Origin: an uncultured Candidatus Saccharibacteria bacterium
GTDB lineage: Bacteria > Patescibacteriota > Minisyncoccia > Phycocordibacterales > PCTT01
DNA: 64,000 nt
Direction of reading: 5' to 3'
NCBI GenBank assembly: GCA_964566505.1
Contig: CAZMIM010000001.1
Location: 132,581 to 196,580, forward strand
Below the pieces are notes generated by a model. That model did not search any database. It was not told the origin of the DNA and saw only the letters and a list, made by a program, of their open reading frames with translations. Below, piece by piece: positions 15,619 through 53,257 of the stretch (position 1 is the first letter of the stretch; every line of letters starts with the position of its first letter). The position numbers and the translations under genes are program-made.

Positions 15619-17612
15619 GTAATTCATCGTCCGTTATCCTGCTAGTTCTCCTGATCTGGATAGTGCTTCACACAGTGCTGTTCAAATTGAAGCTGGTCGA
15701 ACGGCATCCAGCCCGATTGATCGGTTTCCGTGTAGGCCGTGTGTTGCGCTTTCTGGTGTTGGCTCCTTTCGGCGGTGTTCGAATCCTGTGGCGACTGATA
15801 TCACAGAATTCAGTTCAAGCCGACTCTTCATATGGTTTCATGCCACGGTGGAGTCGGTTTTTCTTTATCAGGAAATGGTTTCGCCGCCGAGGAATTGTAG
15901 TAGACTCCTCCCTACGACGCCTGTCGGAGTCTGTGAGTCAGCGACATGTTCTTGTCTGCGCTCCGAGCGGAGCCGGGAAGTCAACCCGGGTCATTATTCA
16001 GCAATGTCTCGCAGTCGAGCGCGCTGACCATACGCTCATTCTTACGGATCCGTCAGGAGAAATCTGGAGGGCGACAAGCGGATATCTCTACTCAAAAGGA
16101 ATGCAGATCAGGGCGCTGAACCTAAGCGATCCCAGCCTCTCAATATTGTACAACCCTCTGGCTCGTTGCGAGACCAAGAACGACGCACTCCAACTCGCAC
16201 GGATCCTTATAGACTCAGCCTATCCCTCTCAGAAAGGTGACATTTTTTGGACGGAGGCTGCAGTTGGATTCTTAGGCTGCATTCTGACAATGTTGAGGAA
16301 CGGACCTGCTGAGTATCGAAATCTCGCAAACGCGTATCGCCTGATTCTCAAAGCCGGATCCGACATAAGGGCACTCGACGATCCCATGTCCAAGTATGCA
16401 GACGAAGACACTTTTGCTTCCTATGCATCGACCGTCGCTTCACCGGAGAAGGTCTTTCTGAGCATTGTGGCAACCGCACGTGTCGCCCTGCAGCCACTTT
16501 CGAACCCTATCCTTTCAAGATTGACCTCAGATGATTCACTTGACATCGCTTGTCTAAGGGAGTCACCCTCCTGCCTCTATGTGATCATCGAGGAGACCGA
16601 ACTCAAGTACTACTCCTTCCTCCTCAATTGCCTCTACACCCAGCTGTTCACAGCCTTCTCCAAATCACAGGACGATCAGCTTCCTGCCTACGTACTGCTT
16701 GATGAGTTCGCACATACTCGAATCCCAAACTTCCCATTGATGGCCACAACACTCCGAAAACGAGGCGTAAGCTTGCTGATGGCAATACAGTCGACAGGAC
16801 AGCTTGATGCGGCATACACGCCAACAGGAGCGCGCATCATCCGAGAGGGAGGCTCAAACACTCAAATATTTTTCCCCGGCTTGCCGCATTCAACTTGTGT
16901 CGAGATATCTCACATGCTTGGTCGAAACCGGCGTGACTCGGGAATCGGCAAAGTATCCGCTTCAGCTGGACCTCTCATGGCTCCAGAAGAAATTCGAACG
17001 CTTCCTGAAGATCGAGCGCTATTGGTGAGCACGAATAGGCAACCGGTTTTACTTCGAACAAAGCCCTACTTCCGCAACCGCCGATTGAAAAAGAGAGCAG
17101 AGCTTCCACCCGTCGATTCCTTCCCGGAAACCGTCCTGACCGGGCAAACCGCTCCTGAGATCCAATACATGCCTTTGCCATCTCCTCAACGTCAGACAGA
17201 TGGGCGCAGTACAGCCAACCCCGGAAGCTCACTTGCCGACCACAGCGGCACAGAGAAACCGGCAGATCCTGTTCCCACGATGGATCAACTGTCTGAATCG
17301 GTTGTGAAGCAGGTAGCTCAACGGGTATGTGAGCTCACAGGACCTGCCCTGAAGCAATCCATCCTACTCAATCAAATTGGATCCGATGCTGTCGTACCTA
17401 TGACAGATCTGATGGAAGCCCTGGGTATTTCGAGAGACGTAGCCGACCGGCTGCGAAACGAAGGCAAACTCCGTCCGGTCGTAACGAAGAATGCCAGGAA
17501 CAGCCGTCTCTACGTGTCGATCGGTCACGCCAGAAATCTGTGCCGGCAACTCAAAGAGGCTCCGATTCCATCGAAGCGAAGAAGTATGAGTCGCACTAAA
17601 CCTAAAAAATAG
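15615..17612 (+). CDS. Type IV coupling protein (VirD4/TraG/TraD-like conjugative ATPase)
   Basis: 665 aa. N-terminal TM helices, Walker A VLVCAPSGAGKSTRV, Walker B-like YVLLDEFAH. Followed directly by MobC-like and relaxase genes. Confidence 0.7.
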   Translation: MSNSSSVILLVLLIWIVLHTVLFKLKLVERHPARLIGFRVGRVLRFLVLAPFGGVRILWRLISQNSVQADSSYGFMPRWSRFFFIRKWFRRRGIVVDSSLRRLSESVSQRHVLVCAPSGAGKSTRVIIQQCLAVERADHTLILTDPSGEIWRATSGYLYSKGMQIRALNLSDPSLSILYNPLARCETKNDALQLARILIDSAYPSQKGDIFWTEAAVGFLGCILTMLRNGPAEYRNLANAYRLILKAGSDIRALDDPMSKYADEDTFASYASTVASPEKVFLSIVATARVALQPLSNPILSRLTSDDSLDIACLRESPSCLYVIIEETELKYYSFLLNCLYTQLFTAFSKSQDDQLPAYVLLDEFAHTRIPNFPLMATTLRKRGVSLLMAIQSTGQLDAAYTPTGARIIREGGSNTQIFFPGLPHSTCVEISHMLGRNRRDSGIGKVSASAGPLMAPEEIRTLPEDRALLVSTNRQPVLLRTKPYFRNRRLKKRAELPPVDSFPETVLTGQTAPEIQYMPLPSPQRQTDGRSTANPGSSLADHSGTEKPADPVPTMDQLSESVVKQVAQRVCELTGPALKQSILLNQIGSDAVVPMTDLMEALGISRDVADRLRNEGKLRPVVTKNARNSRLYVSIGHARNLCRQLKEAPIPSKRRSMSRTKPKK

Positions 17613-17717: not shown

Positions 17718-18101
17718 ATGAGCTCGACACTGAAAGACAGAAAACGAAAATATCTTCAGGAGCTTCGTCGCACCTATACCAGAGTGGATTTGATGATTCC
17801 GCCCGAGGAGGCAATCGTGATTCAGTCGGCTGCCCGGAAGCACGGAATCAAAGTTGGAAAGCTTCTTCGTGTGGCAACGCTCGCGTACCTGAATCAAGAA
17901 TTTGTGGTACCGGATCCGGAGGTCGTTCGTGCCTTAGAGCTACAGATCCGAAGAATTGGAACCAACATCAATCAAATTGCTCGTGCTGCGAATCGGAGCC
18001 GCTCGGTTTCAACTCAGAATATCGAAGATGCGTTTCACCTTCTAGCCGAACTGGAGGACGTCATTGATCAAGCATTTAGGCACCCGGATCAAAATCGATG
18101 A
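17718..18101 (+). CDS. mobC: MobC-family mobilization (relaxosome accessory) protein
   Basis: 127 aa. RRTYTRVDLMIPPEEAIVIQSAARKHGIKVGKLLRVATLAYL matches the MobC pattern (RRT..v.vRls.eE...lk..A...g.svs..lR). Confidence 0.55.
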   Translation: MSSTLKDRKRKYLQELRRTYTRVDLMIPPEEAIVIQSAARKHGIKVGKLLRVATLAYLNQEFVVPDPEVVRALELQIRRIGTNINQIARAANRSRSVSTQNIEDAFHLLAELEDVIDQAFRHPDQNR

Positions 18102-18676
18102 TCATCAAGTCGCTTCGTTGGAAATCTGCCGGATTCAACCGCTTAGTTGACTACGTAGCCAAACATGCCGAAAACAAACAAGCGTTCCGTGTATTTCACA
18201 ACATGCTGCCTCACAGCGATTTATGTCGAGTTTCTGACGAACTGCGAACGAACGACGAGTACAGAAATGTGAGGCGGACTCCAACCGTGCTCTATCACGA
18301 AATCCTAGCGTTCCATCATCTCGACGGTGACGACCTCACTTCGCAAGCGCTTCAGGACCTAACAGAGCAGTACCTCCGAATTCGAGCGCCAAATGGCCTC
18401 GGATTCGCAATGCCACATTTTGATTGTGACCATGCACATGTGCACATTGCCTTGTCTGGAGTGGAATTCAGATCAGAGAAGAGCTTGCGAATGGACAATC
18501 GGAGATTCAAAGCCGTTCGAGAACAGATCGAGATGTACCAAATGGATAACTATCCCGAACTAACACATTCTCTCGTTTATGTTGGGAAGGATCGCATACG
18601 CGTCCAAACAAGGCTCAAAGAACTTGAGTCCATTCGATTAATTCGCGCCTTTGAACCAGGACTCGAGAAGAAGTAG
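18098..18676 (+). CDS. Relaxase/mobilization nuclease domain protein (MobA/VirD2-like, short)
   Basis: 192 aa. Starts MIIKSLRWKSAGFNRLVDYVAK..., His-triad motif HFDCDHAHVHIAL (HxDxxHxHxH). Overlaps the mobC stop. Confidence 0.55.
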   Translation: MIIKSLRWKSAGFNRLVDYVAKHAENKQAFRVFHNMLPHSDLCRVSDELRTNDEYRNVRRTPTVLYHEILAFHHLDGDDLTSQALQDLTEQYLRIRAPNGLGFAMPHFDCDHAHVHIALSGVEFRSEKSLRMDNRRFKAVREQIEMYQMDNYPELTHSLVYVGKDRIRVQTRLKELESIRLIRAFEPGLEKK

Positions 18677-18766: not shown

Positions 18767-19252
18767 TTACACGAATCCTCTTTCCGCCAGACTCACATAG
18801 TCATCGTCTCCGAGTATCAAGTGGTCGCGGACAGGTATCGCCAATAGCTTTCCGGCTTTGACGAGCTGCTTCGTGATGTGTATGTCTTCACGGCTTGGCT
18901 CGGGGTTTCCTGACGGATGGTTGTGAGCCGCAATCAGACATGAGGCATTCGCCAGGATTGCTGCTTTGAATACCGCCCTTGGCTCAACAACGCTTTGACT
19001 CAAACCTCCAACCGATACTGAGCACATGCCCGTCAACGTCATCGCTGTGTCCAAGAAGCAGATGATGAACTCTTCACGGTCGTGCAGAATGAAATAGGCT
19101 TTTAGAAGCTTTGCCAGTTTCCCCGGCGTGTTGATCTTTTCCCGCTTGGCGAACGAAAGGGTTCGCTCCCGAATCAAGCGAGATGAATAGATAGGAATGA
19201 TAAGTCCAGGCTTCTCACTCTCAACCTCTTCGTCTAGGGGTTCTTTGTCCAT
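18767..19252 (-). CDS. radC: RadC-like JAB/MPN domain protein
   Basis: HNHPSGNPEPSREDIHITKQL JAB motif. Track ORF runs to 19441, but the likely start is MDKEPLDEEV at 19252; the upstream extension overlaps the neighbouring ATPase 3' end. Confidence 0.6.
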   Translation of the reverse strand: MDKEPLDEEVESEKPGLIIPIYSSRLIRERTLSFAKREKINTPGKLAKLLKAYFILHDREEFIICFLDTAMTLTGMCSVSVGGLSQSVVEPRAVFKAAILANASCLIAAHNHPSGNPEPSREDIHITKQLVKAGKLLAIPVRDHLILGDDDYVSLAERGFV

Positions 19253-19373
19253 CGTATTGACCTCCTGATATGAAATGATCTGTGGGCTAGAGGCACATCG
19301 TGTGGTGCACATCCTCGTCCATCGTATCGGGAAGTCGATGTGGCAAGTAGACGGTTTTTCGGGGTGAACCTGT

Positions 19374-20570
19374 CTACTTGTCAAAGGGGTATCGTCTGGG
19401 GTCAAGTGTATCGGCACTGAATGGCTTGGACACAGCACCATCGATCATCATTCTGAGGTAGATCGAGTGGTTCGGCAGATTTTCGAAGTCTTCGAACGAG
19501 AACTTGGGATAGAACTCCTTCGCCATGATTCTGGAATCAGTCGAACCCAACCTAAATGAGATTATGGTGCCCACGTTTCCAAGAATGGCTTCTCTCATTT
19601 CTCGGTCTCCTTGCCCTGTGTATTGCTGGCAAATCGCCAAACATACCTTGTATTTACGAGCCTCAGAGAACATCTGGTAGAAAACAGGGGATGAGTAAGC
19701 ATGGACCTCATCTAAATAGGCCGAAAAGTCTCTTCGTCGTTCCTCAGGAGTGTCTGCTCGCGCTAGTGTTGCAGTCTCCAAAGATGCCATCAGCAAGCCT
19801 CCGATTAGGTAGGCAGTATCTTCTCCGACTTTTCCTTTCGCCAGGTTGACCAACAGTATTTTTTCACTGTCGATGATGTCTCGAAGGTCGACGCTTTCCC
19901 CTTTGCCCGTCAGGAGGTCAAATGAAACGGGATTGGCAAGAAATGCCCCTGTTCTGTTCAGAATTGGTGCAATGGTTTCGGCTCTGTATCGAAGAGGAAT
20001 TTTCTCATATTCAAGTCGCCAGAATCTTCGCACTTCCTCATGTTTGATGTATGGAATGACCCCGTTACGAAACGATTTGTCCTGAAGCATCCGCGGAATG
20101 TCTCGGAGCGTGGCATTAGGCAAGTACAGCAATGAAATCAGAGTCATCCTTAATTTGTGTTCCATCGCCGGTCCCCACCAGGAGCTCCATAGTTTCTTGA
20201 ATGTGTTTAGGAGGCTTGAGGCAACAAGAACCCTCTTGTCTTCGGGGACATCTCTCAGTGGATTGAATGAAAGCAGCATGGATGCATGCGGCAGATTGAG
20301 ATCCACGAGCCGATGCTGATCTGCAGGTCCAATACGACGCTTCACATTTTCGTAAAGGTCGCCGTGGGGATCAACGAGCATAAATCCGCGCCCACGCCGG
20401 ATGTCTTCCGCTGCGAATATCTCTAGCAGACTGGATTTCCCGGTTCCTGTTTTTCCGAGAATGTAGATGTGTGACCGCCTATCGATACCATTTCGGATGC
20501 CAAACACCGTTTGGCGGCCTCGGTGATTGGTCCGGGCGAAATATGCAATTTGATCCTCGTCATTTCGCAT
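19374..20570 (-). CDS. P-loop NTPase of conjugative/mobile-element type (TraD/TrwB-like or HerA/DUF87-like)
   Basis: 398 aa. Walker A ILGKTGTGKSSLL, Walker B-like SAYLDEVHAY. No TM helices. Confidence 0.5.
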   Translation of the reverse strand: MRNDEDQIAYFARTNHRGRQTVFGIRNGIDRRSHIYILGKTGTGKSSLLEIFAAEDIRRGRGFMLVDPHGDLYENVKRRIGPADQHRLVDLNLPHASMLLSFNPLRDVPEDKRVLVASSLLNTFKKLWSSWWGPAMEHKLRMTLISLLYLPNATLRDIPRMLQDKSFRNGVIPYIKHEEVRRFWRLEYEKIPLRYRAETIAPILNRTGAFLANPVSFDLLTGKGESVDLRDIIDSEKILLVNLAKGKVGEDTAYLIGGLLMASLETATLARADTPEERRRDFSAYLDEVHAYSSPVFYQMFSEARKYKVCLAICQQYTGQGDREMREAILGNVGTIISFRLGSTDSRIMAKEFYPKFSFEDFENLPNHSIYLRMMIDGAVSKPFSADTLDPRRYPFDK

Positions 20571-24019: not shown

Positions 24020-24586
24020 TCAAATTGGAAGTAGAAAGAATGTGTCGAGGACACAGACTGTACGAGAGGTAAAAGCAGGAAAACACCCTGGAGCGCACGT
24101 AGTGAAGATCAATAAGCGCGAGTATGTCAGAGACAACCCCGACAGATCAAAGAAAGACAACGTAAACAGAAATCGGTAATTGATATGTCTGTATTTATTG
24201 TCACATGGGATCTGAATAAAGAAGGATTGAACGGCTCCGTGTAGTACTGAGCGCGCACGACGAACCGATACCCGGTACTCGTCGATTAGGTGCTGAGCCA
24301 ATACTCTGCGACGTGCTGGCCCTATAGTTTTTTTGATAACGTCCTGCAGCATCTGCTTATCCAGGGACAAGTCAGCCACCAGCTTCTTCAATTGGTTGTT
24401 CTCGGCTTCAAGCTGGCGTAGACGGCGAAGCTCAGAGGTCCCAAGACCTCCGTACTTCTTCTTCCAATTGTAAAAGGTAGCCTCGCTGATGCCCATCTTG
24501 CGGCAAACCTCGGCTACCTTGGTCCCGCTCTCTGCTTGGCGCAGGGCGAAGATGATCTGGCTCTCGGTAAACTTCGACTTCTTCAT
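24020..24586 (-). mobile_element. IS3-family transposase OrfA remnant (HTH plus leucine zipper; OrfB truncated after its first residues)
   Basis: MKKSKFTESQIIFALRQAESGTKVAEVCRKMGISEATFYNWKKKYGG...LEAENNQLKKLVADLSLDKQMLQDV, then LIDEYRVSVRRARSVL (OrfB start), then unrelated sequence. No DDE domain follows. Confidence 0.6.
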
Positions 24587-25058
24587 GGCAATCACGTTTT
24601 TGTCTGATTGTACGTAATCGCCCGGAAACTCTACTATTGAATGGACCAGTTTATGGGAAGAGGTCATATGGTACGACGTCCACGGGAGCCCGGTAACCGT
24701 GCGCCATACGGGGCCGATGGTGGTTGCAATCTCGTTGCCATTCGACGGCTTTGTCGAGTGGCGCTGATAGACTATTTCATAATTGCGCAGGACAGATAGT
24801 GCTGAACCATAACCTATAGAAGTACGAGATTCGCCTGACCGAGCACCTGTGGTGGGACACCTGTACTCTTAGATAGTAAAGCCACTTACTGGACCTAAAC
24901 AACAAAGCTTTTAGACCATTTCGCCCAATACACTTAAGATGCCTTACGCCATGACTCCCTTGAAGGCCTCTGCCTGCCCTCTTTTCACTATAGTCTAGAA
25001 ATGCATGTCTAGAAAAAACCTATCGGGTTTCACTCCCGATAGGTTTTAACACCTTGCC

Positions 25059-28078: not shown

Positions 28079-28474
28079 GTGGACCCTAACCTATTTGTTG
28101 CGGACTGGGAGAAGATCTTCGAGGCATTGATGTTCATCATCGTGTCTTCTTTCATTGTCGAACGATTTCTGGCATTGTTGTTCGAAAGCCGATTTTGGAT
28201 TGAAAAGGTTGAATCCAAAGGATCCAGCCTCAAAGAAGTCTTGGCACTGATTGTTAGCGTAACCATCTGTGTTTACTGGAGCTTCGATGCAGTTAGCATG
28301 ATAATCCCATCTCAACCTACGACTACCCTTCTTGGAGAAATAGTCACCGGAGGTGTGATCGCAGGAGGTAGCAAAGCATCCGTGAAGCTCTTCCATGATC
28401 TTCTGAAGATTCAAAGCTCCGCTAGGGCTGCAAAGAAGAAGGGCGACCAACCAACCAACGAAAGTCAGTCATGA
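28079..28474 (+). CDS. Hypothetical membrane protein
   Basis: 131 aa, about three hydrophobic segments. Stop overlaps the nuclease gene start. Confidence 0.35.
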   Translation: MDPNLFVADWEKIFEALMFIIVSSFIVERFLALLFESRFWIEKVESKGSSLKEVLALIVSVTICVYWSFDAVSMIIPSQPTTTLLGEIVTGGVIAGGSKASVKLFHDLLKIQSSARAAKKKGDQPTNESQS

Positions 28475-29547
28475 TTGGATCAAATCCTTTCTCGAATTGC
28501 AGGTTTTGGCTTCTCTTGTTCGTTCTCTTTGGCTCTGCGAGTACCACAGTGAGCTCGGAAATCACCCTGGACTATCTGGAAGTGAGAAGAACCACTTCGA
28601 TTCGTGGAGAACCTGTCGCAGGAGGAATAGAAATTGCCCAGGTGGAGAAAGGGGAATTCTTGATTCTGCTAGACAATGGAGACCAGATGGGTGGTTTCTA
28701 CCACGTTAGAACACGTTCAAACGCTGATGGGTGGATTTACCGGTCTATGGTCAGACGGTACAGAGGCGAAATGCCTTCTCCCAATATCACCGGTGACGAC
28801 GCATTTGACGACCCAACGTATGCACTCCCACAAACCCTCCAGGAGGCAGCAGCCGCCCATTTGAGACACGGCAAACCACAGGGAACTTACGAGCGAGTTA
28901 GAGCGGGATACGCCTATGCTGTTGATCCTCGTCTAAGAATCCCGATTTGGGTGCAGTATGAACTCAAAGCATCAGACCTTGGCCGAGAAACGCAGCGATC
29001 AAATGACTTCAGGCAAGACACCTCTCTTCCAGATATCGCTCGAGCCGCGCTAGAGGATTATGCCGGAAGCGGGTTCGATCGGGGGCACATGGCACCTGCT
29101 GGAGACATGGTCAGAGACAATAATGTCATGTCGGAGAGTTTCTACTTGTCAAACATGGCACCGCAAGTTGGAATAGGTTTCAACAGGCACATATGGCGAG
29201 ACTTTGAATCAAGCGTACGCTCATGGACAGAATTGATCGGAACAGTCACCATCATCACCGGCCCGGTATTTATGGCGTCGAATGGAATGGTTGAGTACGA
29301 AGTCATAGGTGATCGAAATGTCGCAGTGCCAACGCACTTCTTTAAAATTGTCGTCGACTTTAGCGACCCCACCCAACCACAGTCAGTCGCGATTCTGATG
29401 CCCAACGAATCCCTTACTGGTCACACTTACCTGGAATTTGTGACCACAATCGATGTTATCGAAGATCTCACGGGACTTGATTTTTTTAACCGGATTCCGC
29501 TGCCTGTTCAAGAGCAATTTGAAAGCATAGCCAATCCAAGTTTGTAG
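28471..29547 (+). CDS. Secreted DNA/RNA non-specific endonuclease (NucA/EndoG family) with N-terminal SH3-like domain
   Basis: 358 aa. Signal peptide FWLLLFVLFGSAST. Catalytic DRGHMAPAGD and SNMAPQ (metal-binding Asn) as in Serratia nuclease. Confidence 0.65.
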   Translation: MIGSNPFSNCRFWLLLFVLFGSASTTVSSEITLDYLEVRRTTSIRGEPVAGGIEIAQVEKGEFLILLDNGDQMGGFYHVRTRSNADGWIYRSMVRRYRGEMPSPNITGDDAFDDPTYALPQTLQEAAAAHLRHGKPQGTYERVRAGYAYAVDPRLRIPIWVQYELKASDLGRETQRSNDFRQDTSLPDIARAALEDYAGSGFDRGHMAPAGDMVRDNNVMSESFYLSNMAPQVGIGFNRHIWRDFESSVRSWTELIGTVTIITGPVFMASNGMVEYEVIGDRNVAVPTHFFKIVVDFSDPTQPQSVAILMPNESLTGHTYLEFVTTIDVIEDLTGLDFFNRIPLPVQEQFESIANPSL

Positions 29548-34847: not shown

Positions 34848-35960
34848 ATGCGTGTGAGTGCTCGGCGCAGACCCACCCATCTTGAGGCAAGAGTATCGCT
34901 CAACCGCAACCATGAATCTTTTCATTCATACACCATGACCAAAGAAGACGGTATACTTCGTGACGCTTTTAGGATTATTGGTGATACTATAAACATCGCT
35001 GGTTCCGAAGGCGTACTGATTGATCGCGATACGCTAGCAAAATATCTGCTGGGCTCTGAACTTCGAGAGCGCATTCTGGCCAGATCGGAATATAACTTCC
35101 ATGGAAAAGACAGCCCATTCGAAACAGCTGCCAACTATGTGGACTGGTTCAGTTCGTATGTGACACAAAGATCCGAAATAACGAAGAGTTGGAATAGAAG
35201 TATCTACCGGGCACGTGTGATCACTCAATCAGAGGCTACTGGGAAGGAACGCGAAATTTGGGCGTACTCAGTACGTTCGCCGACCACAAGAGGGCGACTG
35301 ATCTTCAGAGTTGGTGAAGGAGGTATAATTCGAGTTGGCCTAATCGGCAAAGACGGTAGATGGACAAATAGTGATGGACTCGAACAACTGCCTTGCGGAC
35401 TTTATACGGTTAATTTTGGACGGTGGGCGGCCACTCTGAAAGAGTTGGAGGATAGGATCAACGACCCGAATTGCTCTGAAGACGATTTGCAATCCTTCTT
35501 TGAAGAGAATCGTGAATTGCTTCAGGATACGAGGTATAAATCCGTAATTCCCGAAGCGGTCATTCATAGAGAGAGCGGGGAGGTTACTGCACCTTGGGAA
35601 GCCGACTTCATCCTCTCTCCTGCTGATCAAGAGGCATTCTGTAAAATCATTGAGTTGAAGCGCCCGCAATTTGGCACCATAAAAAAAGAACGACGAGGCC
35701 ACGCTAAGTTTTATCGTGAATTGCATGAGGCAATTTCACAACTCAGAGACTACCACGAGGCTTTCGATTCGATCAGCACGCGCGAAAAGTTTCAAGATCG
35801 ATATGGTGTAGAGGTTTTTAAGCCAGACCTTCAACTTATTATTGGTCGCCGATGGACATCAAAGGAACACCAAGCCATGCTAGTACTGCAACGAAGGCAG
35901 CATGTTGAAATACGAAGTTGGGACGGAGAGCTGGATCGACTTCGGAGGCTTTTTACCTAG
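34848..35960 (+). CDS. sduA: Shedu-like (DUF4263 nuclease domain) defense protein
   Basis: 370 aa. C-terminal half ...FFEENRELL...EADFILSPADQEAFCKIIELKRPQ...ISQLRDYHEAF...PDLQLIIGR...VEIRSWDGELDRL parallels the DUF4263 core (D...E-x-K, LIIGR block). Confidence 0.5.
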   Translation: MRVSARRRPTHLEARVSLNRNHESFHSYTMTKEDGILRDAFRIIGDTINIAGSEGVLIDRDTLAKYLLGSELRERILARSEYNFHGKDSPFETAANYVDWFSSYVTQRSEITKSWNRSIYRARVITQSEATGKEREIWAYSVRSPTTRGRLIFRVGEGGIIRVGLIGKDGRWTNSDGLEQLPCGLYTVNFGRWAATLKELEDRINDPNCSEDDLQSFFEENRELLQDTRYKSVIPEAVIHRESGEVTAPWEADFILSPADQEAFCKIIELKRPQFGTIKKERRGHAKFYRELHEAISQLRDYHEAFDSISTREKFQDRYGVEVFKPDLQLIIGRRWTSKEHQAMLVLQRRQHVEIRSWDGELDRLRRLFT

Positions 35961-45050: not shown

Positions 45051-46220
45051 CTAGCTTTTGAGTATTTTCTGTAAAACTTTTATCACCGTATCGACGTCTT
45101 TTTTAGTAGTCTCTTTCCCAAGAGAAAAGCGTACTGCGCTCGGGTTTCTGTGGTCAAATAGAGCCTGAAGTGTAGCTGAAGGGTCGTCGTTTGACTGAGT
45201 ACAAGCACTTCGAGTCGAAGTATAGATATTGTTCATATCAAGAGACACCACGATAAACTCATGGTTCTCTCCTGGGAATGTAACGCTAACATTGTGAGGG
45301 GCGCGAAGCACTTTGTCTCCATTTATACGCGCCTTTGGAAAATGGGCCTCAATCTCTTTAAAGAAATAGTCTCTTACGGCTTCTACTTTTTCTTTATATT
45401 CACCTTGTTCTGTCTGCGCTATCTCAAATGCTTTTGCAAAACCTACAATAAGAGGCATTGCTGGAGTACCGTGTCGTACATATGACTTTGTTGAAAGCCC
45501 CAAAAGAATTGGCTTTAGGGTGATGTCTTTTCGTACATAAAGAGCTCCAACACCTTTTGGCCCATACATCTTGTGTGCATCAAGTGTCATCATGTCTACT
45601 CGGAGTTTTGTAGCATCACACGGTAGATATAGTGCTGCTTGTGATGCATCTGTATGAAAAATGATATTGCTACCGTGCTCTTGGTTGTATTTTTCTATAG
45701 CACGACCTATAAGCTGTATTGGCTGTATTGTGCCGATTTCGCTGTTTACATACAAAATAGAAACCAAAAGTGTATCCTCTGAAAGAAGCTCTTTGAAATG
45801 GTCTGTATCTACAATACCGGCTTCGTTGACACGTGCTATGTCCACATGCAAATCATTTGCATTTGCATATTCTACTATTCCCCCTACTGATGGATGCTCT
45901 ATAGCACTAAGAATGATTCGCTTGCCGGAAATTTCTCCCTTCTCTTTTTGAGCTTCTAGATAGCCAACAAGTGCTTGGGTTGAGCTTTCTGTTCCATTTC
46001 CAGTAAATATAATCTCTTCAGGCCTACAATCGATAAAACGAGCACATGTGCGCTGTGCATTCTCAAAAACCTCTCGTGCTTCTACTCCCATAGAATGAAT
46101 CGCCCAAGGGTGAGCAAATACATCACTCCAGTATGGCTCCATAGCTTTTTGTACACGCGCATCAACTGGCGTGGTGGCCATGTAGTCGAGGTATATTCCT
46201 TTGTTTTTCTTATTAAGCAT
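45051..46220 (-). CDS. Cysteine desulfurase / class V aminotransferase (IscS/NifS-like)
   Basis: PLP-lysine region TLDAHKMYGPKGVGALY. Track ORF extends to 46313, but MLNKKNKGIYLDYMATTP at 46220 is the likelier start. Confidence 0.7.
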   Translation of the reverse strand: MLNKKNKGIYLDYMATTPVDARVQKAMEPYWSDVFAHPWAIHSMGVEAREVFENAQRTCARFIDCRPEEIIFTGNGTESSTQALVGYLEAQKEKGEISGKRIILSAIEHPSVGGIVEYANANDLHVDIARVNEAGIVDTDHFKELLSEDTLLVSILYVNSEIGTIQPIQLIGRAIEKYNQEHGSNIIFHTDASQAALYLPCDATKLRVDMMTLDAHKMYGPKGVGALYVRKDITLKPILLGLSTKSYVRHGTPAMPLIVGFAKAFEIAQTEQGEYKEKVEAVRDYFFKEIEAHFPKARINGDKVLRAPHNVSVTFPGENHEFIVVSLDMNNIYTSTRSACTQSNDDPSATLQALFDHRNPSAVRFSLGKETTKKDVDTVIKVLQKILKS

Positions 46221-46301
46221 GCTCTTTATTATTCTCATACTATATTGTATAGTAAGGATTACATCAACAGCACCAGGTGCTGTTTTAGCTTGATTTATAC
46301 C

Positions 46302-47804
46302 ATGAGTGCACAATCAAAGACAGAGAATAATATCACTCGACCGCCCGTAATCGTTGTTATGGGTCATATTGACCATGGGAAATCAAAACTCCTTGATTAT
46401 ATCCGCAAATCACATGTAGTGGAATCAGAAGCTGGGGGTATCACACAGCATATCTCTGCATACGAAGTAGAACACGAAAAAGATGGTGAAAAACACCGAA
46501 TCACTTTTCTGGACACTCCAGGTCATGAGGCTTTTTCTGGAATGCGAGCGCGAGGAGCTCAAGTAGCAGATATTGCTATTTTGGTGGTGGCAGCAGATGA
46601 CGGAGTAAATACACAAACTGTGGAAGCGCTCGAAGCTATAAAAGGAGCTGATGTTCCTTATGTGGTTGCTATCAACAAGATTGATAAACCAGACGCAGAT
46701 ATAAATAAAACAATCCAAAGCCTTATCGAGCACGAGGTCTATGTGGAAGGATATGGAGGAGATATTCCGTATGCAAAGATAAGTGCCAAAGAAGGTGATG
46801 GTGTGGATGAGCTTCTGGATATTTTGCTACTCGTAGCAGAGCTTGAAGAGCTGAGCGCAAACCCAAACACTCCAGCAGAAGGCGTGGTGATAGAAACACG
46901 GCTCGACCCAAAGAAAGGAATCTCTGCAACACTTGTGATTACTTCAGGGACTATCAAACAAGGAATGCATGTGGTGGCAGAAAAAGCTACATCACCCGTG
47001 CGAATCATGGAAGACTTTAGCGGGAAGAAAATCTCAGAAGCAACATTTTCATCACCTATTATGATTACTGGCTTCAATGAGACACCAAATGTTGGTGCAC
47101 GATTTAAAACATTTGAAAAACGAAAAGATGCAGAGAAGTATGCTCTTGAATATGGAGAAGCTTCAACAAAACAAGAAGCTGAGGTTGTATCTGATGATAT
47201 TCATACTATTCCTGTAGTGGTAAAGGGAGATGTGGTGGGAACACAAGAAGCTCTCATGCTAAAGCTTAAAGAGCTAGAGACAGAGCGAGTAAAACTAAAA
47301 ATAGTACACACGGGTATTGGAACCATTACTGAAGGTGATGTGAAGCTTGCTGGAACAAGTGAAAATGCTTACATCATCGGGTTTAATGTTGATATTGAAC
47401 GAACGGCAGAAGAGCTTGCAGAGCGCATGGGTGTAAAAACACAAACATCAAATATTATCTACGAGCTTATTGAGTGGTTTGAAAAAGTTGTAGAAGAGGA
47501 AACTCCTAGAGAAGAAACAGAAGTAGAGATAGGGCGACTAAAAGTACTAAAAACATTTAGCCAAGTTAAAGACAAGCAAGTGATTGGTGGAAAGGTGAGC
47601 GGTGGAGTTATAAAGAAAGGTGCACGATTTAATATCATGCGACGAAATGAGAATGTGGGAGTTGGTAAGATAAATGGTATCCAACAGCAAAAATCTAGCG
47701 TGTCAGAGGCGCACGAAGGAGGTGAAGCAGGTCTTGAGGTAGAGTCTAAGACAACTATTGCCGAGAGCGATCACCTTTCTGTCTTTGTAATAGAAAAACG
47801 ATAA
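46302..47804 (+). CDS. infB: Translation initiation factor IF-2 (short form lacking the long N-terminal region)
   Basis: G-domain VIVVMGHIDHGKSKLLD, DTPGHEAF, NKIDK. Start at MSAQSK; the upstream part of the track ORF overlaps the desulfurase gene. Confidence 0.85.
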   Translation: MSAQSKTENNITRPPVIVVMGHIDHGKSKLLDYIRKSHVVESEAGGITQHISAYEVEHEKDGEKHRITFLDTPGHEAFSGMRARGAQVADIAILVVAADDGVNTQTVEALEAIKGADVPYVVAINKIDKPDADINKTIQSLIEHEVYVEGYGGDIPYAKISAKEGDGVDELLDILLLVAELEELSANPNTPAEGVVIETRLDPKKGISATLVITSGTIKQGMHVVAEKATSPVRIMEDFSGKKISEATFSSPIMITGFNETPNVGARFKTFEKRKDAEKYALEYGEASTKQEAEVVSDDIHTIPVVVKGDVVGTQEALMLKLKELETERVKLKIVHTGIGTITEGDVKLAGTSENAYIIGFNVDIERTAEELAERMGVKTQTSNIIYELIEWFEKVVEEETPREETEVEIGRLKVLKTFSQVKDKQVIGGKVSGGVIKKGARFNIMRRNENVGVGKINGIQQQKSSVSEAHEGGEAGLEVESKTTIAESDHLSVFVIEKR

Positions 47805-48152: not shown

Positions 48153-48224
48153 GGCTCGGTGGCGAAGTGGTAACGCTGGGGACTGCAAATCCTCCATGCG
48201 CGGGTTCGATTCCCGCCCGGGCCT
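48153..48224 (+). tRNA. trnC: tRNA-Cys (anticodon GCA)
   Basis: Acceptor ggctcgg/ccgggcc, anticodon loop ctGCAaa, T-arm cgggttcgattcccg. Confidence 0.8.
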
Positions 48225-48242
48225 CACTGTATTTTTATACAT

Positions 48243-48324
48243 GCCCGGGTGGTGGAATTGGTATACACGCTCGACTTAAGATCGAGTGCCGCAAGGCATG
48301 AGGGTTCGACTCCCTCCCCGGGCA
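48243..48324 (+). tRNA. trnL: tRNA-Leu (anticodon UAA), long variable arm
   Basis: Acceptor gcccggg/cccgggc, anticodon arm ctcga-ctTAAga-tcgag, T-arm gaggg-ttcgact-ccctc. Confidence 0.8.
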
Positions 48325-48382
48325 CATTAAACAAAATGAGCTGATTTTTAATCAGAGAATATTGTTTAAGTCTGGGAGAGCT

Positions 48383-48428
48383 GAGTCGAACGACTCCCTG
48401 CCTGCCGGCAGGCAGGCCTCCCCGGGCA
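48383..48428 (+). repeat. Degenerate second copy of the tRNA-Leu 3' end (cgactccct...cctccccgggcaca) interrupted by a palindrome gcctgccggcaggc
   Basis: Read directly in the sequence. It lies 58 nt downstream of tRNA-Leu(TAA), and both sides match the tRNA 3' end. Confidence 0.4.
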
Positions 48429-48479
48429 CAGCATAGGTAGAATATTTTGAAAGAAAATGATATGCTACTGTGTTATAAT

Positions 48480-48555
48480 CCGCCCATAGCTCAGTTGGTA
48501 GAGCATCCGGCTCTTAACCGGCAGGTCGTAGGTTCGAATCCTACTGGGCGGACCA
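48480..48555 (+). tRNA. trnK: tRNA-Lys (anticodon CUU)
   Basis: Acceptor ccgccca/tgggcgg, anticodon loop ctCTTaa, T-arm gtagg-ttcgaat-cctac, CCA encoded. Confidence 0.75.
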
Positions 48556-48637
48556 GGGCGAGTGGCGTAATTGGTAGCCGCGCTAGTCTTAGGAACTAGT
48601 GGAGTAATCCGTGGAGGTTCGAGTCCTCTCTCGCCCA
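48556..48637 (+). tRNA. trnL: tRNA-Leu (anticodon UAG), long variable arm
   Basis: Acceptor gggcgag/ctcgccc, anticodon arm ctagt-ctTAGga-actag, T-arm ggagg-ttcgagt-cctct. Confidence 0.8.
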
Positions 48638-48651
48638 CATAAAATAGTTGG

Positions 48652-49040: not shown

Positions 49041-49556
49041 GTGTGTAATATGTCAAAACTTCCTTTTTACAAATCCTTTAAAAATTTTTGGATTAATCAA
49101 TTTTCACAAATAAGGCAGGCTTGGGAAAATAAAGAGCTAGTTTGGATACTTTTTTATATATTTGCAATTCTTATATTAATAATGCCTGGAATAGGGTATT
49201 TTGTAGGAGGGGTTGATAATTTAATTACTACTTCAAGAAAATACATCCCTATTATATTCGAGGCAGAATACCCACCAAAAAAATTAAGCTATGAGCTTAT
49301 TAAAAGAAACAAGACTGAAGAAGGGTTGCACAGAACACTTTTTAAAATATCAATAGAATCTTATCCTGGAGATAAAAGAAACCAAACTTTATATGGCATC
49401 AATTTAGGTCAAGATGCTGAATGTGAAAGAGGTAGTGATAAATTTGAAGCGAAAATTTTAGCTGGCATTGCAACCTCAACTCAAGAGTTTTTGTTTGACT
49501 GTCTAACAAAAGAACCTCTTTTGGATAACGGAAAACTCTTCTCTATATTTGAATAG
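49041..49556 (+). CDS. Hypothetical protein with N-terminal TM
   Basis: 171 aa, hydrophobic segment LVWILFYIFAILILIMPGIGYFVGG, very AT-rich. Confidence 0.4.
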   Translation: MCNMSKLPFYKSFKNFWINQFSQIRQAWENKELVWILFYIFAILILIMPGIGYFVGGVDNLITTSRKYIPIIFEAEYPPKKLSYELIKRNKTEEGLHRTLFKISIESYPGDKRNQTLYGINLGQDAECERGSDKFEAKILAGIATSTQEFLFDCLTKEPLLDNGKLFSIFE

Positions 49557-49621
49557 TCTTAAAACACCCGCATGACGCGGGTGTTTTTATTATGTAATTG
49601 GAAACAATATCCACTATTGTT

Positions 49622-49864
49622 TTACACTCCGATACTACTTTTTATAAATGCGAGAATTCCCCATGCGGCTACCATAATAAACATTCCTAGTATTCCCCAA
49701 ATCATATGCCGTGTTCCCTCTTTTCGTTTTTCTGGATTTTCAGCACCAGCAATAAACTTCACAATTCCCCATACAAAATAGAGAAGTGCTAATGCAAATA
49801 TCAAACTTATGAGCGGATTAATAATCGCATCTCCAAGTCGCTGAATGATTCTCTCTGTTGTCAT
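49622..49864 (-). CDS. Small two-TM pilin-like protein (TrbC/VirB2-like), paralog 1 of 6
   Basis: 80 aa. ...LLYFVWGIVKFIAGAENPEKRKEGTRHMIWGILGMFIMVAAWGILAFI, two helices around a charged loop. Confidence 0.5.
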   Translation of the reverse strand: MTTERIIQRLGDAIINPLISLIFALALLYFVWGIVKFIAGAENPEKRKEGTRHMIWGILGMFIMVAAWGILAFIKSSIGV

Positions 49865-49867
49865 ACA

Positions 49868-50233
49868 CTATTGTGGAATTCGTGGCACGCTTATAACGCT
49901 CTCTGCGCTTCTATTGTCTTTGATACCAAGAGAGTTTTGCAAAAATGCAACCAACCCCCATACAGATACCATCACAAATAGAGCAACGATTCCCCACAAC
50001 ATTTGTTGCTTTGCGTCCTCTCGTGCACCTGAGTCTCCTGACTTGCGGATAAAGTTCGCCACACCCCACAAAAAGTAGAGTAGTGAGAGCCCCACCACAA
50101 TAGGAATAATCCACTCAACCCAAATACCAACACTAATGATTAGGTTCTCGATTGTTTGTGCGTATGCAACGCTTGGCAGTGCGAATATAGACAATAACAC
50201 TCCATTTATAATTGTTCCTTTTTGATTCTTCAT
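49868..50233 (-). CDS. Small secreted/two-TM pilin-like protein, paralog 2
   Basis: 121 aa. Signal peptide, then LWGVANFIRKSGDSGAREDAKQQMLWGIVALFVMVSVWGLVAFL. Confidence 0.5.
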   Translation of the reverse strand: MKNQKGTIINGVLLSIFALPSVAYAQTIENLIISVGIWVEWIIPIVVGLSLLYFLWGVANFIRKSGDSGAREDAKQQMLWGIVALFVMVSVWGLVAFLQNSLGIKDNRSAESVISVPRIPQ

Positions 50234-50291
50234 ACAATTCCCATATACGCCAAAAACACCTCATTACGAGGCGTTCTGGTCGTTATAAACG

Positions 50292-50702
50292 TTATCGGAG
50301 GTCAACTGTTGGGATATCACCTCTATCCACATTTCCTCCTGAGCTAATTCCAAGTGTGTTTCCAAGGAATGCTACCAATCCCCATACAGATACCATCACA
50401 AAAAGTGCGATGATTCCCCAGATCATGATGCCTTTTGCCTCTTCTCGAGCATCTCCACTCGATACAACATACTTCACAAGTCCCCATAGGAAGTATAGAA
50501 GTGCTAGCGCAACCACGATTGGAAGGAGCGTGTTGATCCATCCTGCAATTTTCAAAAGAAAATCATCAAGATTTCGTGTTTGGTTTGAAACTCCTTGTGC
50601 AAATGCAAAGAACGGTGTCATGAAATATAGAGATACCATTCCTGCTGCGATTGTTAAATATCTTTTCATATTTGTATTAATAATGTGTAATAAATAAATC
50701 AA
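50292..50702 (-). CDS. Small secreted/two-TM pilin-like protein, paralog 3
   Basis: 136 aa. LWGLVKYVVSSGDAREEAKGIMIWGIIALFVMVSVWGLVAFL. Confidence 0.5.
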   Translation of the reverse strand: MIYLLHIINTNMKRYLTIAAGMVSLYFMTPFFAFAQGVSNQTRNLDDFLLKIAGWINTLLPIVVALALLYFLWGLVKYVVSSGDAREEAKGIMIWGIIALFVMVSVWGLVAFLGNTLGISSGGNVDRGDIPTVDLR

Positions 50703-50788
50703 TATACACGAGCCAAAAACGACCTCTGACTCAGTTTATATTAGGATACCATGTCAAAAACAATAGCGAAAACAAGCTTTGTGGATAG

Positions 50789-51115
50789 CTATCGTGTAGG
50801 AATACCCAGACTTGAGCCAACAAATGACACAAGCCCCCAAAGAGAAAGTAGAACAAAAAGCCCTACAACTCCCCAGACCATACGCTGTTTTCCCTCTTCG
50901 CGCCCTGTAGAACTCTCTGCATTTCGTACAAAGTCTGCTATTCCCCATAGAAATACCAATAGTGCCGCACCTGAAAGGATGGGAATAATAGATGTAATCA
51001 TGCCTGTAATAGAATCTGCAAGTTGTCGAAAGTTTTGGGGTGCAGCATGAGCCACTCGTGGAAACACAGAGTAGAAAAGCACACTATATACAAAATAATA
51101 ATAGTGATAGTCCAT
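50789..51115 (-). CDS. Small secreted/two-TM pilin-like protein, paralog 4
   Basis: 108 aa. LWGIADFVRNAESSTGREEGKQRMVWGVVGLFVLLSLWGLVSFV. Confidence 0.5.
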   Translation of the reverse strand: MDYHYYYFVYSVLFYSVFPRVAHAAPQNFRQLADSITGMITSIIPILSGAALLVFLWGIADFVRNAESSTGREEGKQRMVWGVVGLFVLLSLWGLVSFVGSSLGIPTR

Positions 51116-51453
51116 TAGAGTAGTTCTGTTACTGTATTACTGATAAGCGTACTTAGAACTGTAGCCCCAAGTAGAACCGCCGCACCAATAGCTGTATATG
51201 TAAATGCCCGTCGTGCCTCTGAGATTTTCTCTGGGTTACCTTGTGCTCGCACAAAAAGGAATCCTGCGTATATAAAACCAAGAATAATAAGTGGTGTACC
51301 AAGCTGTACTACAATATCAAGAATAGCTGCCAGTAGCTCTTGTAGGTTTCTGCTCTTTATCGGATTTGTAACACCTTGCCCAAATACAATCATTGGAGCA
51401 AATGCAATCACAGACAGTACCGAAGTATATAGAAATATTGCTTTCTTTTTCAT
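51115..51453 (-). CDS. Small secreted/two-TM pilin-like protein, divergent paralog 5
   Basis: 112 aa. Signal peptide, AGFLFVRAQGNPEKISEARRAFTYTAIGAAVLLGATVL. Confidence 0.45.
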   Translation of the reverse strand: MKKKAIFLYTSVLSVIAFAPMIVFGQGVTNPIKSRNLQELLAAILDIVVQLGTPLIILGFIYAGFLFVRAQGNPEKISEARRAFTYTAIGAAVLLGATVLSTLISNTVTELL

Positions 51454-51455
51454 AT

Positions 51456-51857
51456 TTATTGCTGATCTAGCGGTATATCTATGTTAGCACGCGGGTCAAT
51501 AAAACTCTCTAGCAGTGTGTTAACAACGAGCCACGCTGAAAGCATGATTAAAAGCCCTATAACAGTCTTTTTGAATACATTTTTAGCCTGATCTTTCTTA
51601 CCTGGGCTACCTCCAGAAGTAATAAGTAGAAAACCTGCATATACAAACAGAAGTGGGGCAATAATCGTTACAGACCAGAAAATAAGGGTATTTATGACAG
51701 TATTAAGAAGTACCATGAACTGATTAAAGTCACATACTGGCTCACCATCACCTCCACATGGAACCAATCCTGCAGCTGAAGTAAGAAGTGGTAAAACAAA
51801 AACCACCAATATTAGCAATCCTGAAAATATATGAAGTATAAGCTTTCTTTTATTCAT
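51456..51857 (-). CDS. Small secreted/two-TM pilin-like protein, divergent paralog 6
   Basis: 133 aa. AGFLLITSGGSPGKKDQAKNVFKKTVIGLLIMLSAWLVV. Confidence 0.45.
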   Translation of the reverse strand: MNKRKLILHIFSGLLILVVFVLPLLTSAAGLVPCGGDGEPVCDFNQFMVLLNTVINTLIFWSVTIIAPLLFVYAGFLLITSGGSPGKKDQAKNVFKKTVIGLLIMLSAWLVVNTLLESFIDPRANIDIPLDQQ

Positions 51858-51967
51858 CCCTTTAGAAATTATTGATAACTAGGTTTAATTTATTTAGGTA
51901 TATATTACCCATTATACGTATTTTATGTTTTCCCGTTTATGTATGAAATTTCTAACGGGACTCATAA

Positions 51968-53257
51968 TTATTGTCCAAGTAGAATATCCATCAAATCACT
52001 TGCTCTGTTTACCGACTCTCCTATTCTCAATCGCCCAGATGTAACATCCTCTACCATTTCTTGGAATATTCCTCGTGAACCTGCTGGATTTGGGTCTAGC
52101 CATGATCGAGCAATGACAGCACTCTCATAAAATACACTCTTGTATGCGTCATCTGCTGGCTCACGAAGCAATCGTCTCTGTACCGGTGCTACATTTCTAT
52201 TTACTACAAAAAGCTCTCCTGCGTCTCTCTCAGAGAGAATAAGTGCAAGAGCAAGCGCTCCATTTGGATCTTGGGCTCGTTTTAGAACAGATAGTGCTCC
52301 AATGTGCCCAAGTGTCATTCGAGTATTTGCGCTTCTGATTTGTGGAAATGGTGCTACATCAAAATTCAGGTTTGGATTTACTAGCCGAATATCATCAATC
52401 TCTGACGCAAAACCAAAGTACATTGCCAAATCACCTGATGAGAACATTCGTGATGCTCTTGGGAGTGAGCGGTTCCATGAATAAATAGGTTTTACTGGGT
52501 CTGAAAATTCTGTATAGAAACGAAGCGCTGTCTCTGCTGGGACCAGTGTAGAACCAAATCTCTCTCGTAGTACATTTTCAAGCTCTCCAAAACTGTTTCG
52601 CTCTACAATGGGTGTACCCGCCTGAATAAGCATTGCAGAAAGTACATCTTTTGCATTATCAACATTTCGCATTTCTCCAAACGACACACCTGCTTGCTGT
52701 ATTGTGCCATTGAAGTCACTTTCGGTAAGGTCTGGTACGACAGTATTAAACTCATCCCAATATGAAGGAGGTGATACAAGACCAGCATTTGCAAATATAT
52801 TTTTGTTCCAATACATCACAAGCGGATCTACATATAGAGGAAATCCAATTATACCCTCTTCATTTGTGAATATATCTGCCCCATCGATATATGTGTCTTT
52901 GAAATCACGCAGAGAAAATGTCTCGTATGGAATGGCGATTATTTTCTCTTGGTGTGTGAGAATCTGGTCTTCATTTATCAAAATAGCGTCAGGACCTCTG
53001 TCTTCTGCAAGCGCTTCTGTAAGCTCTATATCAAAATCATCACGAGAGAACTCCTCGTATGAAATATTTACAGCATTGTTTCCAGCAAAAAGCTCTCCTG
53101 TAACACGCTCAAACACATCTTCGTCTAGCACTCCCCATACTTCTACATTAATAGCGTCTTGTGGAGTAGAGCGCTGAAGACCCAAGAAAATCACTCCGAT
53201 AACTGCAAATGCACCGAAAATGATTGTGATTATTAGCTGAAATGTATTTCCTTTCAT
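51968..53257 (-). CDS. Extracellular solute-binding protein (ABC transporter SBP, family-1-like) with N-terminal membrane anchor
   Basis: 429 aa. N-terminal TM IITIIFGAFAVIGVIFLGL, then periplasmic binding-protein-like body. Confidence 0.55.
   Translation of the reverse strand: MKGNTFQLIITIIFGAFAVIGVIFLGLQRSTPQDAINVEVWGVLDEDVFERVTGELFAGNNAVNISYEEFSRDDFDIELTEALAEDRGPDAILINEDQILTHQEKIIAIPYETFSLRDFKDTYIDGADIFTNEEGIIGFPLYVDPLVMYWNKNIFANAGLVSPPSYWDEFNTVVPDLTESDFNGTIQQAGVSFGEMRNVDNAKDVLSAMLIQAGTPIVERNSFGELENVLRERFGSTLVPAETALRFYTEFSDPVKPIYSWNRSLPRASRMFSSGDLAMYFGFASEIDDIRLVNPNLNFDVAPFPQIRSANTRMTLGHIGALSVLKRAQDPNGALALALILSERDAGELFVVNRNVAPVQRRLLREPADDAYKSVFYESAVIARSWLDPNPAGSRGIFQEMVEDVTSGRLRIGESVNRASDLMDILLGQ

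Follow-up and report, generated by a model that had tools for sequence, protein, structure and literature searches.

The subject of this work is a tandem array of six small open reading frames (ORFs) on the minus strand of a 64,000-nucleotide (nt) window of contig CAZMIM010000001.1, which belongs to an assembly deposited as an uncultured Candidatus Saccharibacteria bacterium (GenBank GCA_964566505.1). The array spans positions 49622-51857 of the window, to which all coordinates refer, and is transcribed in the order g6-g5-g4-g3-g2-g1. Comparison with related genomes identifies the six genes as six distinct, ancient orthologous groups that keep the same order in many species, and profile searches identify their products as pilin-like proteins in the type IV secretion system (T4SS) pilin family typical of Patescibacteria. 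The host genome is a Patescibacteria genome of the Paceibacteria type. We think it moderately probable that the array is a chromosomal cassette of six VirB2-like pilin paralogs, with fixed subunit roles, that forms a pilus or conduit through a VirB4/VirB6 machine encoded elsewhere.

To compare the array with its relatives, we used a contig scan that took one genome per species and yielded 80 loci, all in metagenome-assembled genomes of Patescibacteria. Their labels comprise Paceibacteria, Zambryskibacteria, Campbellbacteria, Kaiserbacteria and Parcubacteria, as well as many generic "Saccharibacteria" titles on third-party assemblies. Many of the assemblies titled "uncultured Candidatus Saccharibacteria bacterium" have the same GyrA-SBP-array-RbfA-IF2 synteny (SBP, solute-binding protein) and similar identities as the loci titled Zambryskibacteria or Paceibacteria, and such titles may be generic and not exact as assignments to a class.

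Between four and seven ORFs of the pilin family lie on one strand in 73 of the 80 loci, and the commonest count is six (34 loci). Gene order is kept among these relatives: a g6-like gene is followed by a g5-like gene, by two or three genes resembling g4, g3 or g2, and by a short g1-like gene. The copy number of the middle class (g2/g3/g4-like) ranges from about 1 to 4. For a positional test, we took the 30 clean six-gene arrays, including that of the window. The best cross-genome match lay at the same array position for 170 of their 180 genes (30, 30, 28, 24, 28 and 30 of 30 for positions 1 to 6, respectively). Over all loci, 390 of 419 pilins, including all six window genes, had their best match in another genome and not in their own array. 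Scores between positions 4 and 5 were slightly higher within a genome (92 bits) than across genomes (82 bits).

The window genes share 38-43% identity with their positional orthologs, which is in the range of the ortholog identities of neighboring genes (SBP, 39%; RbfA, 38%; methyltransferase, 44%; IF-2, 46%). Because orthology follows array position, best matches lie in other genomes and divergence resembles that of housekeeping genes, we conclude that the duplications in the array are old and that its copies have been neither homogenized nor unusually fast-evolving.

Against a gathering cut-off of 26.6 bits, all six proteins belong to Pfam PF18895 (T4SS_pilin, "Type IV secretion system pilin"): g1 to g6 score 50.9, 36.0, 44.5, 34.9, 43.8 and 37.9 bits (E values from 1.7e-13 to 1.6e-8). 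A word-indexed search with g3 found 557 homologs at E≤0.001. PF18895 is present in all of the best 120 of these 557, and those with names are "pilin" or hypothetical proteins of Patescibacteria, Parcubacteria, Campbellbacteria and Paceibacterota. When a profile of the g3 class, built from 118 family members, was run against PDB sequences, the top match was TraM of pKM101, a VirB2-type pilin (8cw4; E=7e-4). This alignment spans the signal peptide and the first helix of the profile.

A second family model, NCBIfam NF045849, which describes the Mbov_0395/MMCAP2_0565 family of pilin-like conjugal transfer proteins from mycoplasma integrative and conjugative elements (ICEs), matches all six proteins at E≤0.007. 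Its cut-off of 40 bits is passed by g1 alone (42.4 bits, model positions 9-79), and g2 to g6 score 16-31 bits. A search for homologs of g1 yielded just 9 proteins, none of them named as coming from outside Patescibacteria; the link of g1 to mycoplasma ICEs thus comes from NCBIfam only.

The six genes are contiguous, with intergenic gaps of -1 to 119 nt; the start of g4 and the stop of g5 overlap by 1 nt (Table 1). All six products exactly match called genes on one 283,212-bp contig of the NCBI source genome, where they are singleton NCBI proteins, and the start called for g3 is the ATG at 50669. Pairwise amino acid identity among the six is 15-48% (mean, 28%), with g3 the closest paralog of g2 at 48%. 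A preliminary description of this DNA, made from its letters, was accurate in calling them six tandem same-strand paralogs, four of which (g1-g4) have a recognizable core in common while two (g5 and g6) are divergent. The consensus motif that it gave for the core has to be relaxed: in its strict form it matches none of the six, and loosened forms match g1-g4.

Two long hydrophobic segments are apparent by hydropathy in each of the six members, and each small product takes the form of a hairpin, in which a short charged loop containing Lys/Arg connects two hydrophobic helices. A signal peptide had been ascribed to the whole set along with the two transmembrane segments. A signal-like N terminus that looks cleavable is predicted by hydropathy in five of the six members, with an A-x-A-type site in g2, g3, g5 and g6 and an atypical, aromatic-rich version in g4. 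By contrast, g1 has no signal peptide and consists of the two hydrophobic segments only. An AlphaFold2 model of g3 (mean pLDDT, 75.7) has a signal-peptide helix followed by a helical hairpin of 38+32 residues, in agreement with hydropathy.

Table 1. Features of the pilin array, its flanks and the higher-GC island, in window coordinates.
Feature	Position	Strand	Description
g6, array position 1	51456-51857	-	133 aa; signal peptide, Cys pair C34/C42 before helix 1, two hydrophobic helices; PF18895 E=1.9e-9, 37.9 bits
g5, array position 2	51115-51453	-	112 aa; signal peptide VFG|Q, invariant NP motif, two hydrophobic helices; PF18895 E=2.8e-11
g4, array position 3	50789-51115	-	108 aa; atypical aromatic-rich signal peptide ending AHA|APQNF; PF18895 E=1.6e-8
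g3, array position 4	50292-50669	-	125 aa; signal peptide AFA|Q, helix 32-69, loop 70-73, helix 74-105, Gly-rich C-terminal tail; PF18895 E=1.7e-11
g2, array position 5	49868-50233	-	121 aa; signal peptide AYA|Q; PF18895 E=7.7e-9
g1, array position 6, terminal	49622-49864	-	80 aa; two-helix hairpin, no signal peptide; PF18895 E=1.7e-13, best of six
SBP-like gene upstream of array	51968-53257	-	429 aa, N-terminal membrane anchor; PF01547 SBP_bac_1 E=1.1e-12, PF13416 E=3.3e-12
SBP-g6 intergenic region	51858-51967	-	promoter-like hexamers including TATAAT; AAAGGG just before g6 ATG
GC-rich hairpin flanked by A and T runs	49561-49587	.	11 pairs; 35 nt downstream of g1 stop
Integrase	8471-9739		higher-GC island
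TRAP DctP binding protein	11623-12714		higher-GC island
VirD4-like coupling protein	15615-17612		higher-GC island
Relaxase-domain ORF (relaxase fragment)	18098-18676		higher-GC island
RadC	18767-19441		higher-GC island
DUF87 ATPase	19374-20570		higher-GC island
Transposase HTH	24020-24667		higher-GC island
NucA-type endonuclease	28471-29547		higher-GC island
Shedu SduA_C (defence gene)	34848-35960		higher-GC island

The lack of a signal peptide in g1 extends to its relatives. The 82 pilins across the 80 loci and the window for which g1 is the best window match have a median length of 88 aa, and 78 of them have just two hydrophobic segments. In all 30 six-gene arrays, the position-6 ortholog begins directly at the mature domain with no signal peptide, and 28 of these 30 proteins match NF045849 at E≤0.001. 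Many position-3 orthologs also lack a signal peptide, starting at the mature 'P.NF.EL' segment, as do about half of the position-1 orthologs. Signal peptides thus appear to be optional in the PF18895 array family, unlike in canonical VirB2.

Two further features of these classes may bear on structure and ancestry. The Cys pair of g6, just before helix 1, is invariant in the 30 positional orthologs, which suggests a disulfide-bonded extracytoplasmic loop in the position-1 class. The match of the position-6 class to the mycoplasma ICE family may point to a connection of Patescibacteria pilins with monoderm MPF-FATA-type elements. As a speculative corollary of little weight, the match of the signal-less g1 might mean that pilin-like proteins were already present in the monoderm (MPF-FATA-type) ancestor of the Patescibacteria T4SS and were not borrowed from diderms. 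This bears on a question of pilin origin that Quiñonero-Coronel et al. (2025; PMC12102498) leave open where they discuss it, namely, whether the pilins derive from a monoderm-type ancestor or were co-opted from diderm systems.

The preliminary description also reported patches of near-identical DNA within the array, which it took as consistent with gene conversion. The exact match is real, in that the 23-mer CCCCATACAGATACCATCACAAA occurs at 49956-49978 in g2 and at 50380-50402 in g3. Around it, however, the two genes are just 80% identical across 80 nt, a stretch in which this is the one 23-nt exact run. The coding strand of the 23-mer specifies FVMVSVWG, the most conserved peptide of the family, and 5 of its 23 bases are synonymous sites. 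The same 23-mer is present in the ortholog of another species (locus L015) and, with a one-base difference, in five further species.

To account for codon usage, we aligned the genes codon by codon and, wherever residues were identical, compared the number of identical codons with that expected from the codon usage of the genome. The counts fit that expectation for all 15 pairs (for g2/g3, 31 observed versus 26.7 expected). In a resampling of codons conditional on the protein sequences (5000 draws; six pairs, three statistics, P uncorrected), the sole standout was the longest exact run of g2/g3, with a nominal P of 0.009-0.016 that is not significant after multiple-test correction. Window and total identity of g2/g3 were borderline (P of 0.03-0.07, uncorrected). 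The other five of the six tested pairs showed no excess in longest exact run and a few nominally borderline values for window or total identity, the lowest being 0.037 (g1/g3) and 0.040 (g1/g4). Because codon counts are as expected and the 23-mer recurs across species, the DNA identity is essentially explained by protein conservation and codon usage. The alignment at DNA level that had been proposed as a check for conversion tracts therefore returned roughly what these two factors predict, and gene conversion in the array is not supported.

These results bear directly on the idea, put forward with the gene conversion claim, that the array is a variable surface-filament repertoire. Under this explanation, the genes would encode interchangeable filament subunits, diversified and homogenized by gene conversion and used for host-range or antigenic variation, like the virB2 families of Anaplasma and Bartonella. 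The exact run in g2 and g3, the changing number of middle-class copies among relatives and the slight excess of within-genome scores at positions 4 and 5 are in its favor, and host adaptation is raised as a possible role of such arrays in the relevant part of PMC12102498. We nevertheless regard it as very unlikely here. The run encodes the peptide that is best conserved in the family, an exact copy of it is present in another species, its P value does not survive correction, and codon counts are at expectation in every pair. Furthermore, each window gene is closer to a relative in another species than to its array mates, orthology follows position, and divergence equals that of neighboring housekeeping genes. 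With duplications that are old, copies that are not homogenized and rates that are ordinary, a variable repertoire is contradicted for this clade and, in large part, refuted.

Distinct orthologs that form a stable and ordered set instead favor a multi-subunit structure. In the pilin cassette that we propose, the six proteins would span the cytoplasmic membrane in the orientation of VirB2, in which the basic loop is inside and both ends are outside. From there, a machine of the VirB4/VirB6 type, with its genes at another place in the genome, would extract them to build a pilus or an envelope-spanning conduit. Since the six classes are fixed, they would have distinct and non-redundant structural roles (major and minor or base subunits) and would not be interchangeable variants. 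By analogy with the essential six-pilin series of the Saccharibacterium Southlakia epibionticum, the structure would probably serve contact or exchange with a host cell.

Several observations weigh against this proposal. The assignment to TrbC/VirB2-type pilins made in the preliminary description is partly supported, in that PF18895 and the TraM match agree with it but PF04956 (TrbC/VirB2), the model with which it was to be checked, does not: none of the six reaches its cut-off of 27.9 bits, the best being g5 at 21.1 bits (E=3.6e-4) and g4 at 15.4 bits, with the others unreported at E≤1. Profiles of the g5, g6 and g1 classes matched no solved pilin in the PDB sequence search. Genes for VirB4, VirB6, VirB3 and VirB8 are missing from the 64-kb window and from the neighborhood of the related arrays examined, and no VirB4-sized ORF flanks any of the arrays inspected among relatives. 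The window has T4SS-type genes only within a higher-GC island, namely, those for a VirD4-like coupling protein and a DUF87 ATPase and the relaxase-domain ORF; the coupling protein and relaxase fragment are more than 30 kb from the array. The main weakness of the proposal is that no T4SS gene is near the array within the window. To our knowledge, a pilus has yet to be observed for a T4SS of any Patescibacteria, which leaves the filament as an expectation of the model, and we know of no counterpart in T4SS operons to the tight linkage with an SBP-like gene described below.

The array has the same GC content (0.39-0.40) as its flanks and sits within a conserved chromosomal neighborhood. Upstream, toward higher coordinates, are the SBP-like gene, a methyltransferase, GyrA, an MBL-fold protein, YceG, a sigma factor and LeuRS. 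Downstream, toward lower coordinates, are a hairpin, a convergent ORF (49041-49556), four tRNA genes, RbfA, IF-2, a NifS-like gene, a protease and ClpB. The synteny MBL-GyrA-(methyltransferase)-SBP-array...RbfA-IF-2-NifS-protease-ClpB is common to at least 60 loci. Judged by these sequence comparisons, the array is native to the chromosome and vertically inherited.

The SBP-like gene is the constant partner of the array. In all 63 loci that show both, it is on the same strand and directly precedes the first pilin gene, at a median distance of 2 nt. In the window, this gap is 110 nt and contains promoter-like hexamers, and the array may have its own promoter there; these hexamers are only suggestive, since the total of promoter-like sequences in this region is no higher than in shuffles in a consensus scan. 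At the other end, the hairpin downstream of g1 is likely a bidirectional intrinsic terminator shared with the convergent ORF, going by its structure and position; a terminator scan gave 9 sites versus 2.7 expected.

A rival explanation is that the cassette works without a T4SS. The six hairpin proteins could form a T4SS-independent complex with the SBP-like protein, such as an uptake or sensing device, in which case the name "T4SS pilin" would denote ancestry only. The position of the SBP-like gene in all 63 loci, the lack of any gene for a T4SS ATPase or channel close to the array, both in the window and in the relatives examined, the many family members without the signal peptide of canonical VirB2 and the absence of a permease or ATPase partner adjoining the SBP gene are all in keeping with such a complex. 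Yet gene order is kept over more than 15 kb in these reduced genomes, which makes adjacency weak evidence for function, and the SBP and g6 genes of the window are separated by a gap with promoter-like sequence. The same family is, moreover, often beside virB4 in other Patescibacteria (pilin genes are near virB4 in 1135 of 1948 assemblies, by the counts given in PMC12102498) and occurs inside the essential T4SS cluster of S. epibionticum, as described in the part of PMC10633639 that concerns it. Sequence links to TraM, TrbC and the ICE pilin-like family also point to a T4SS, and we consider an independent complex unlikely.

A little less likely still is that, in this Paceibacteria-type clade, the six-pilin cassette has become uncoupled from a virB4 cluster and joined to an orphan, membrane-anchored SBP-like protein. 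The result would be a fixed seven-component surface device, a filament or conduit that carries or feeds the binding protein and captures or imports molecules of the host cell. If true, this would be a role undescribed for any T4SS pilin set. We give the least credence, and very little, to the array being cargo or a remnant of an integrated conjugative element whose pilins, along with the coupling protein and relaxase of the window, act in DNA transfer. An integrase, a VirD4-like coupling protein, a relaxase-domain ORF and a DUF87 ATPase are indeed present, but they lie at least 30 kb away in DNA of distinctly higher GC content, and the nearest relatives of the coupling protein are 33-38% identical and labeled Bacteroidota/Calditrichaeota, not Patescibacteria. 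The array, in turn, stands at the same chromosomal site, in housekeeping synteny, in 60 or more species without the island, which refutes this reading. With a profile built from the array, no additional member of the family was found in the 64 kb, island included, which leaves the island with no PF18895-like gene.

The island itself (about 8000-36000; GC content of 0.46-0.54) looks foreign and unrelated to the array from its composition and gene content, and is possibly a mobilizable element or an assembly chimera. VirB4 is absent from it. Elsewhere in the window, a C39-peptidase ABC exporter (2221-4296) adjoins a 786-aa protein (4765-7125) with a weak match to a DarB-type duplicated permease of darobactin export, and the interval 2221-7125 looks like a peptide-export locus by these similarities. 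We considered the array products as bacteriocin-type precursor peptides for this C39 transporter and rejected the idea: the transporter gene is 45 kb away, the six proteins lack the architecture, and all of them pass PF18895.

The region between the array and RbfA has features of its own. The convergent ORF in the window (171 aa) has no family match and no counterpart in relatives. Several relatives (L008:10726-12864, L015:10758-12931, L054:10663-12953 and L009:10766-13523) have a convergent pair downstream of the array. One of its products is a membrane protein of 275-385 aa, which in L009 carries a PF18896 SLT_3 lysozyme-like domain, and the other is a Band_7/SPFH protein. This pair is absent from the window, where the unrelated ORF occupies its spot. 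A tRNA cluster (48153-48638; Cys-GCA, Leu-TAA, Lys-CTT and Leu-TAG) lies between RbfA and the array region. Because the gap between the array and RbfA varies from about 0.4 to 9 kb in relatives, this interval is a variable spot within the conserved synteny. Further along, the longest ORF for IF-2 (start at 46095) and the 5' end of the divergent NifS-like gene (45051-46313) have about 220 nt in common. Since relatives align from about residue 70 onward, translation of IF-2 probably begins at a site further downstream.

Patescibacteria make up a large and mostly uncultured share of bacterial diversity, and in the one species tested their T4SS and pilin series are essential. The array described here indicates that a six-pilin set can sit away from virB4 and be consistently paired with a solute-binding-like protein. 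It also offers concrete targets: which member is the major subunit, what role the signal-less member has, and whether the SBP-like protein is part of the machine.

That pilins are multi-copy in Patescibacteria, as the preliminary description stated, is documented in both PMC12102498 and PMC10633639. In its account of the arrays, the former reports 441 VirB2-like arrays of 2-11 genes in 383 Patescibacteria assemblies, with a mean identity of 25% and a maximum of 54%, and defines an array as at least two PF18895 or PF04956 genes, in tandem or one gene apart, in a Patescibacteria genome. The six contiguous genes of the window fall within this definition. They are likewise PF18895 members, in tandem on one strand of a Patescibacteria chromosome, and their identity (mean of 28%, maximum of 48%) is similarly low. 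Tandem VirB2-like arrays in Patescibacteria are thus already published, and the present array fits that description as it is given there. Unlike those arrays as described, it is in a Paceibacteria-type genome with no virB4 within the 64-kb window, and it follows an SBP-like gene, a term absent from the main text of that study. The passage on array function suggests that arrays give versatility towards different host strains, whereas the six genes here are fixed positional orthologs.

The closest functional parallel is the predicted pilin series in the T4SS cluster (SEML1_0006-0019) of S. epibionticum ML1, which the section of Wang et al. (2023; PMC10633639) on this cluster reports as essential for epibiotic growth by Tn-seq. 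A review (PMC12857230), where it treats this species, counts six VirB2-like pilins and raises the speculation that a pilus provides a conduit to the host. As far as these sources describe it, the series resembles the present array in that a monoderm Patescibacterium encodes, one after another, six small VirB2-like proteins that diverge in sequence but are similar in structure, with no relaxase or coupling protein associated with the pilins. The S. epibionticum pilins, however, are inside the T4SS cluster and essential, whereas the present six are apart from T4SS genes in 64 kb and are known from sequence alone.

Like canonical VirB2/TrbC/TraM pilins (PF04956; pKM101 TraM, 8cw4), the array proteins are small and combine two hydrophobic helices with a short charged loop and, in five of the six, a signal-like N terminus, and the sequence similarity is weak but specific (the TraM match and a sub-threshold TrbC match). 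They differ in failing the PF04956 cut-off, in the lack of a signal peptide in several members and whole positional classes, in their monoderm host, in having no adjacent virB3/virB4 and in comprising six fixed paralogs as opposed to one major pilin. Like NF045849 proteins, g1 is an 80-aa two-helix protein without a signal peptide that passes the family cut-off; that model, however, is an 'equivalog' for ICE-borne genes of Mollicutes, whereas g1 is chromosomal and ends a six-gene Patescibacteria array. No sign of ICE carriage was found for g1, which has conserved chromosomal synteny, host-like GC content and no ICE genes adjoining it.

The virB2 paralog families of Anaplasma phagocytophilum and Bartonella, to which a role in immune evasion or in varied interaction with hosts is ascribed (as cited in PMC12102498), also place multiple tandem virB2-like genes in one genome. 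In contrast to those families as they are presented there, the array shows no sign of recombination or accelerated divergence, and its members are stable orthologs across species. Positional orthology in six classes, a constant SBP-like partner and a conserved signal-less terminal member with an ICE-family match were not found in the literature passages targeted and may be reported elsewhere. Taken together, positional orthology, SBP linkage and the signal-less terminal member are modest refinements of a known type of array.

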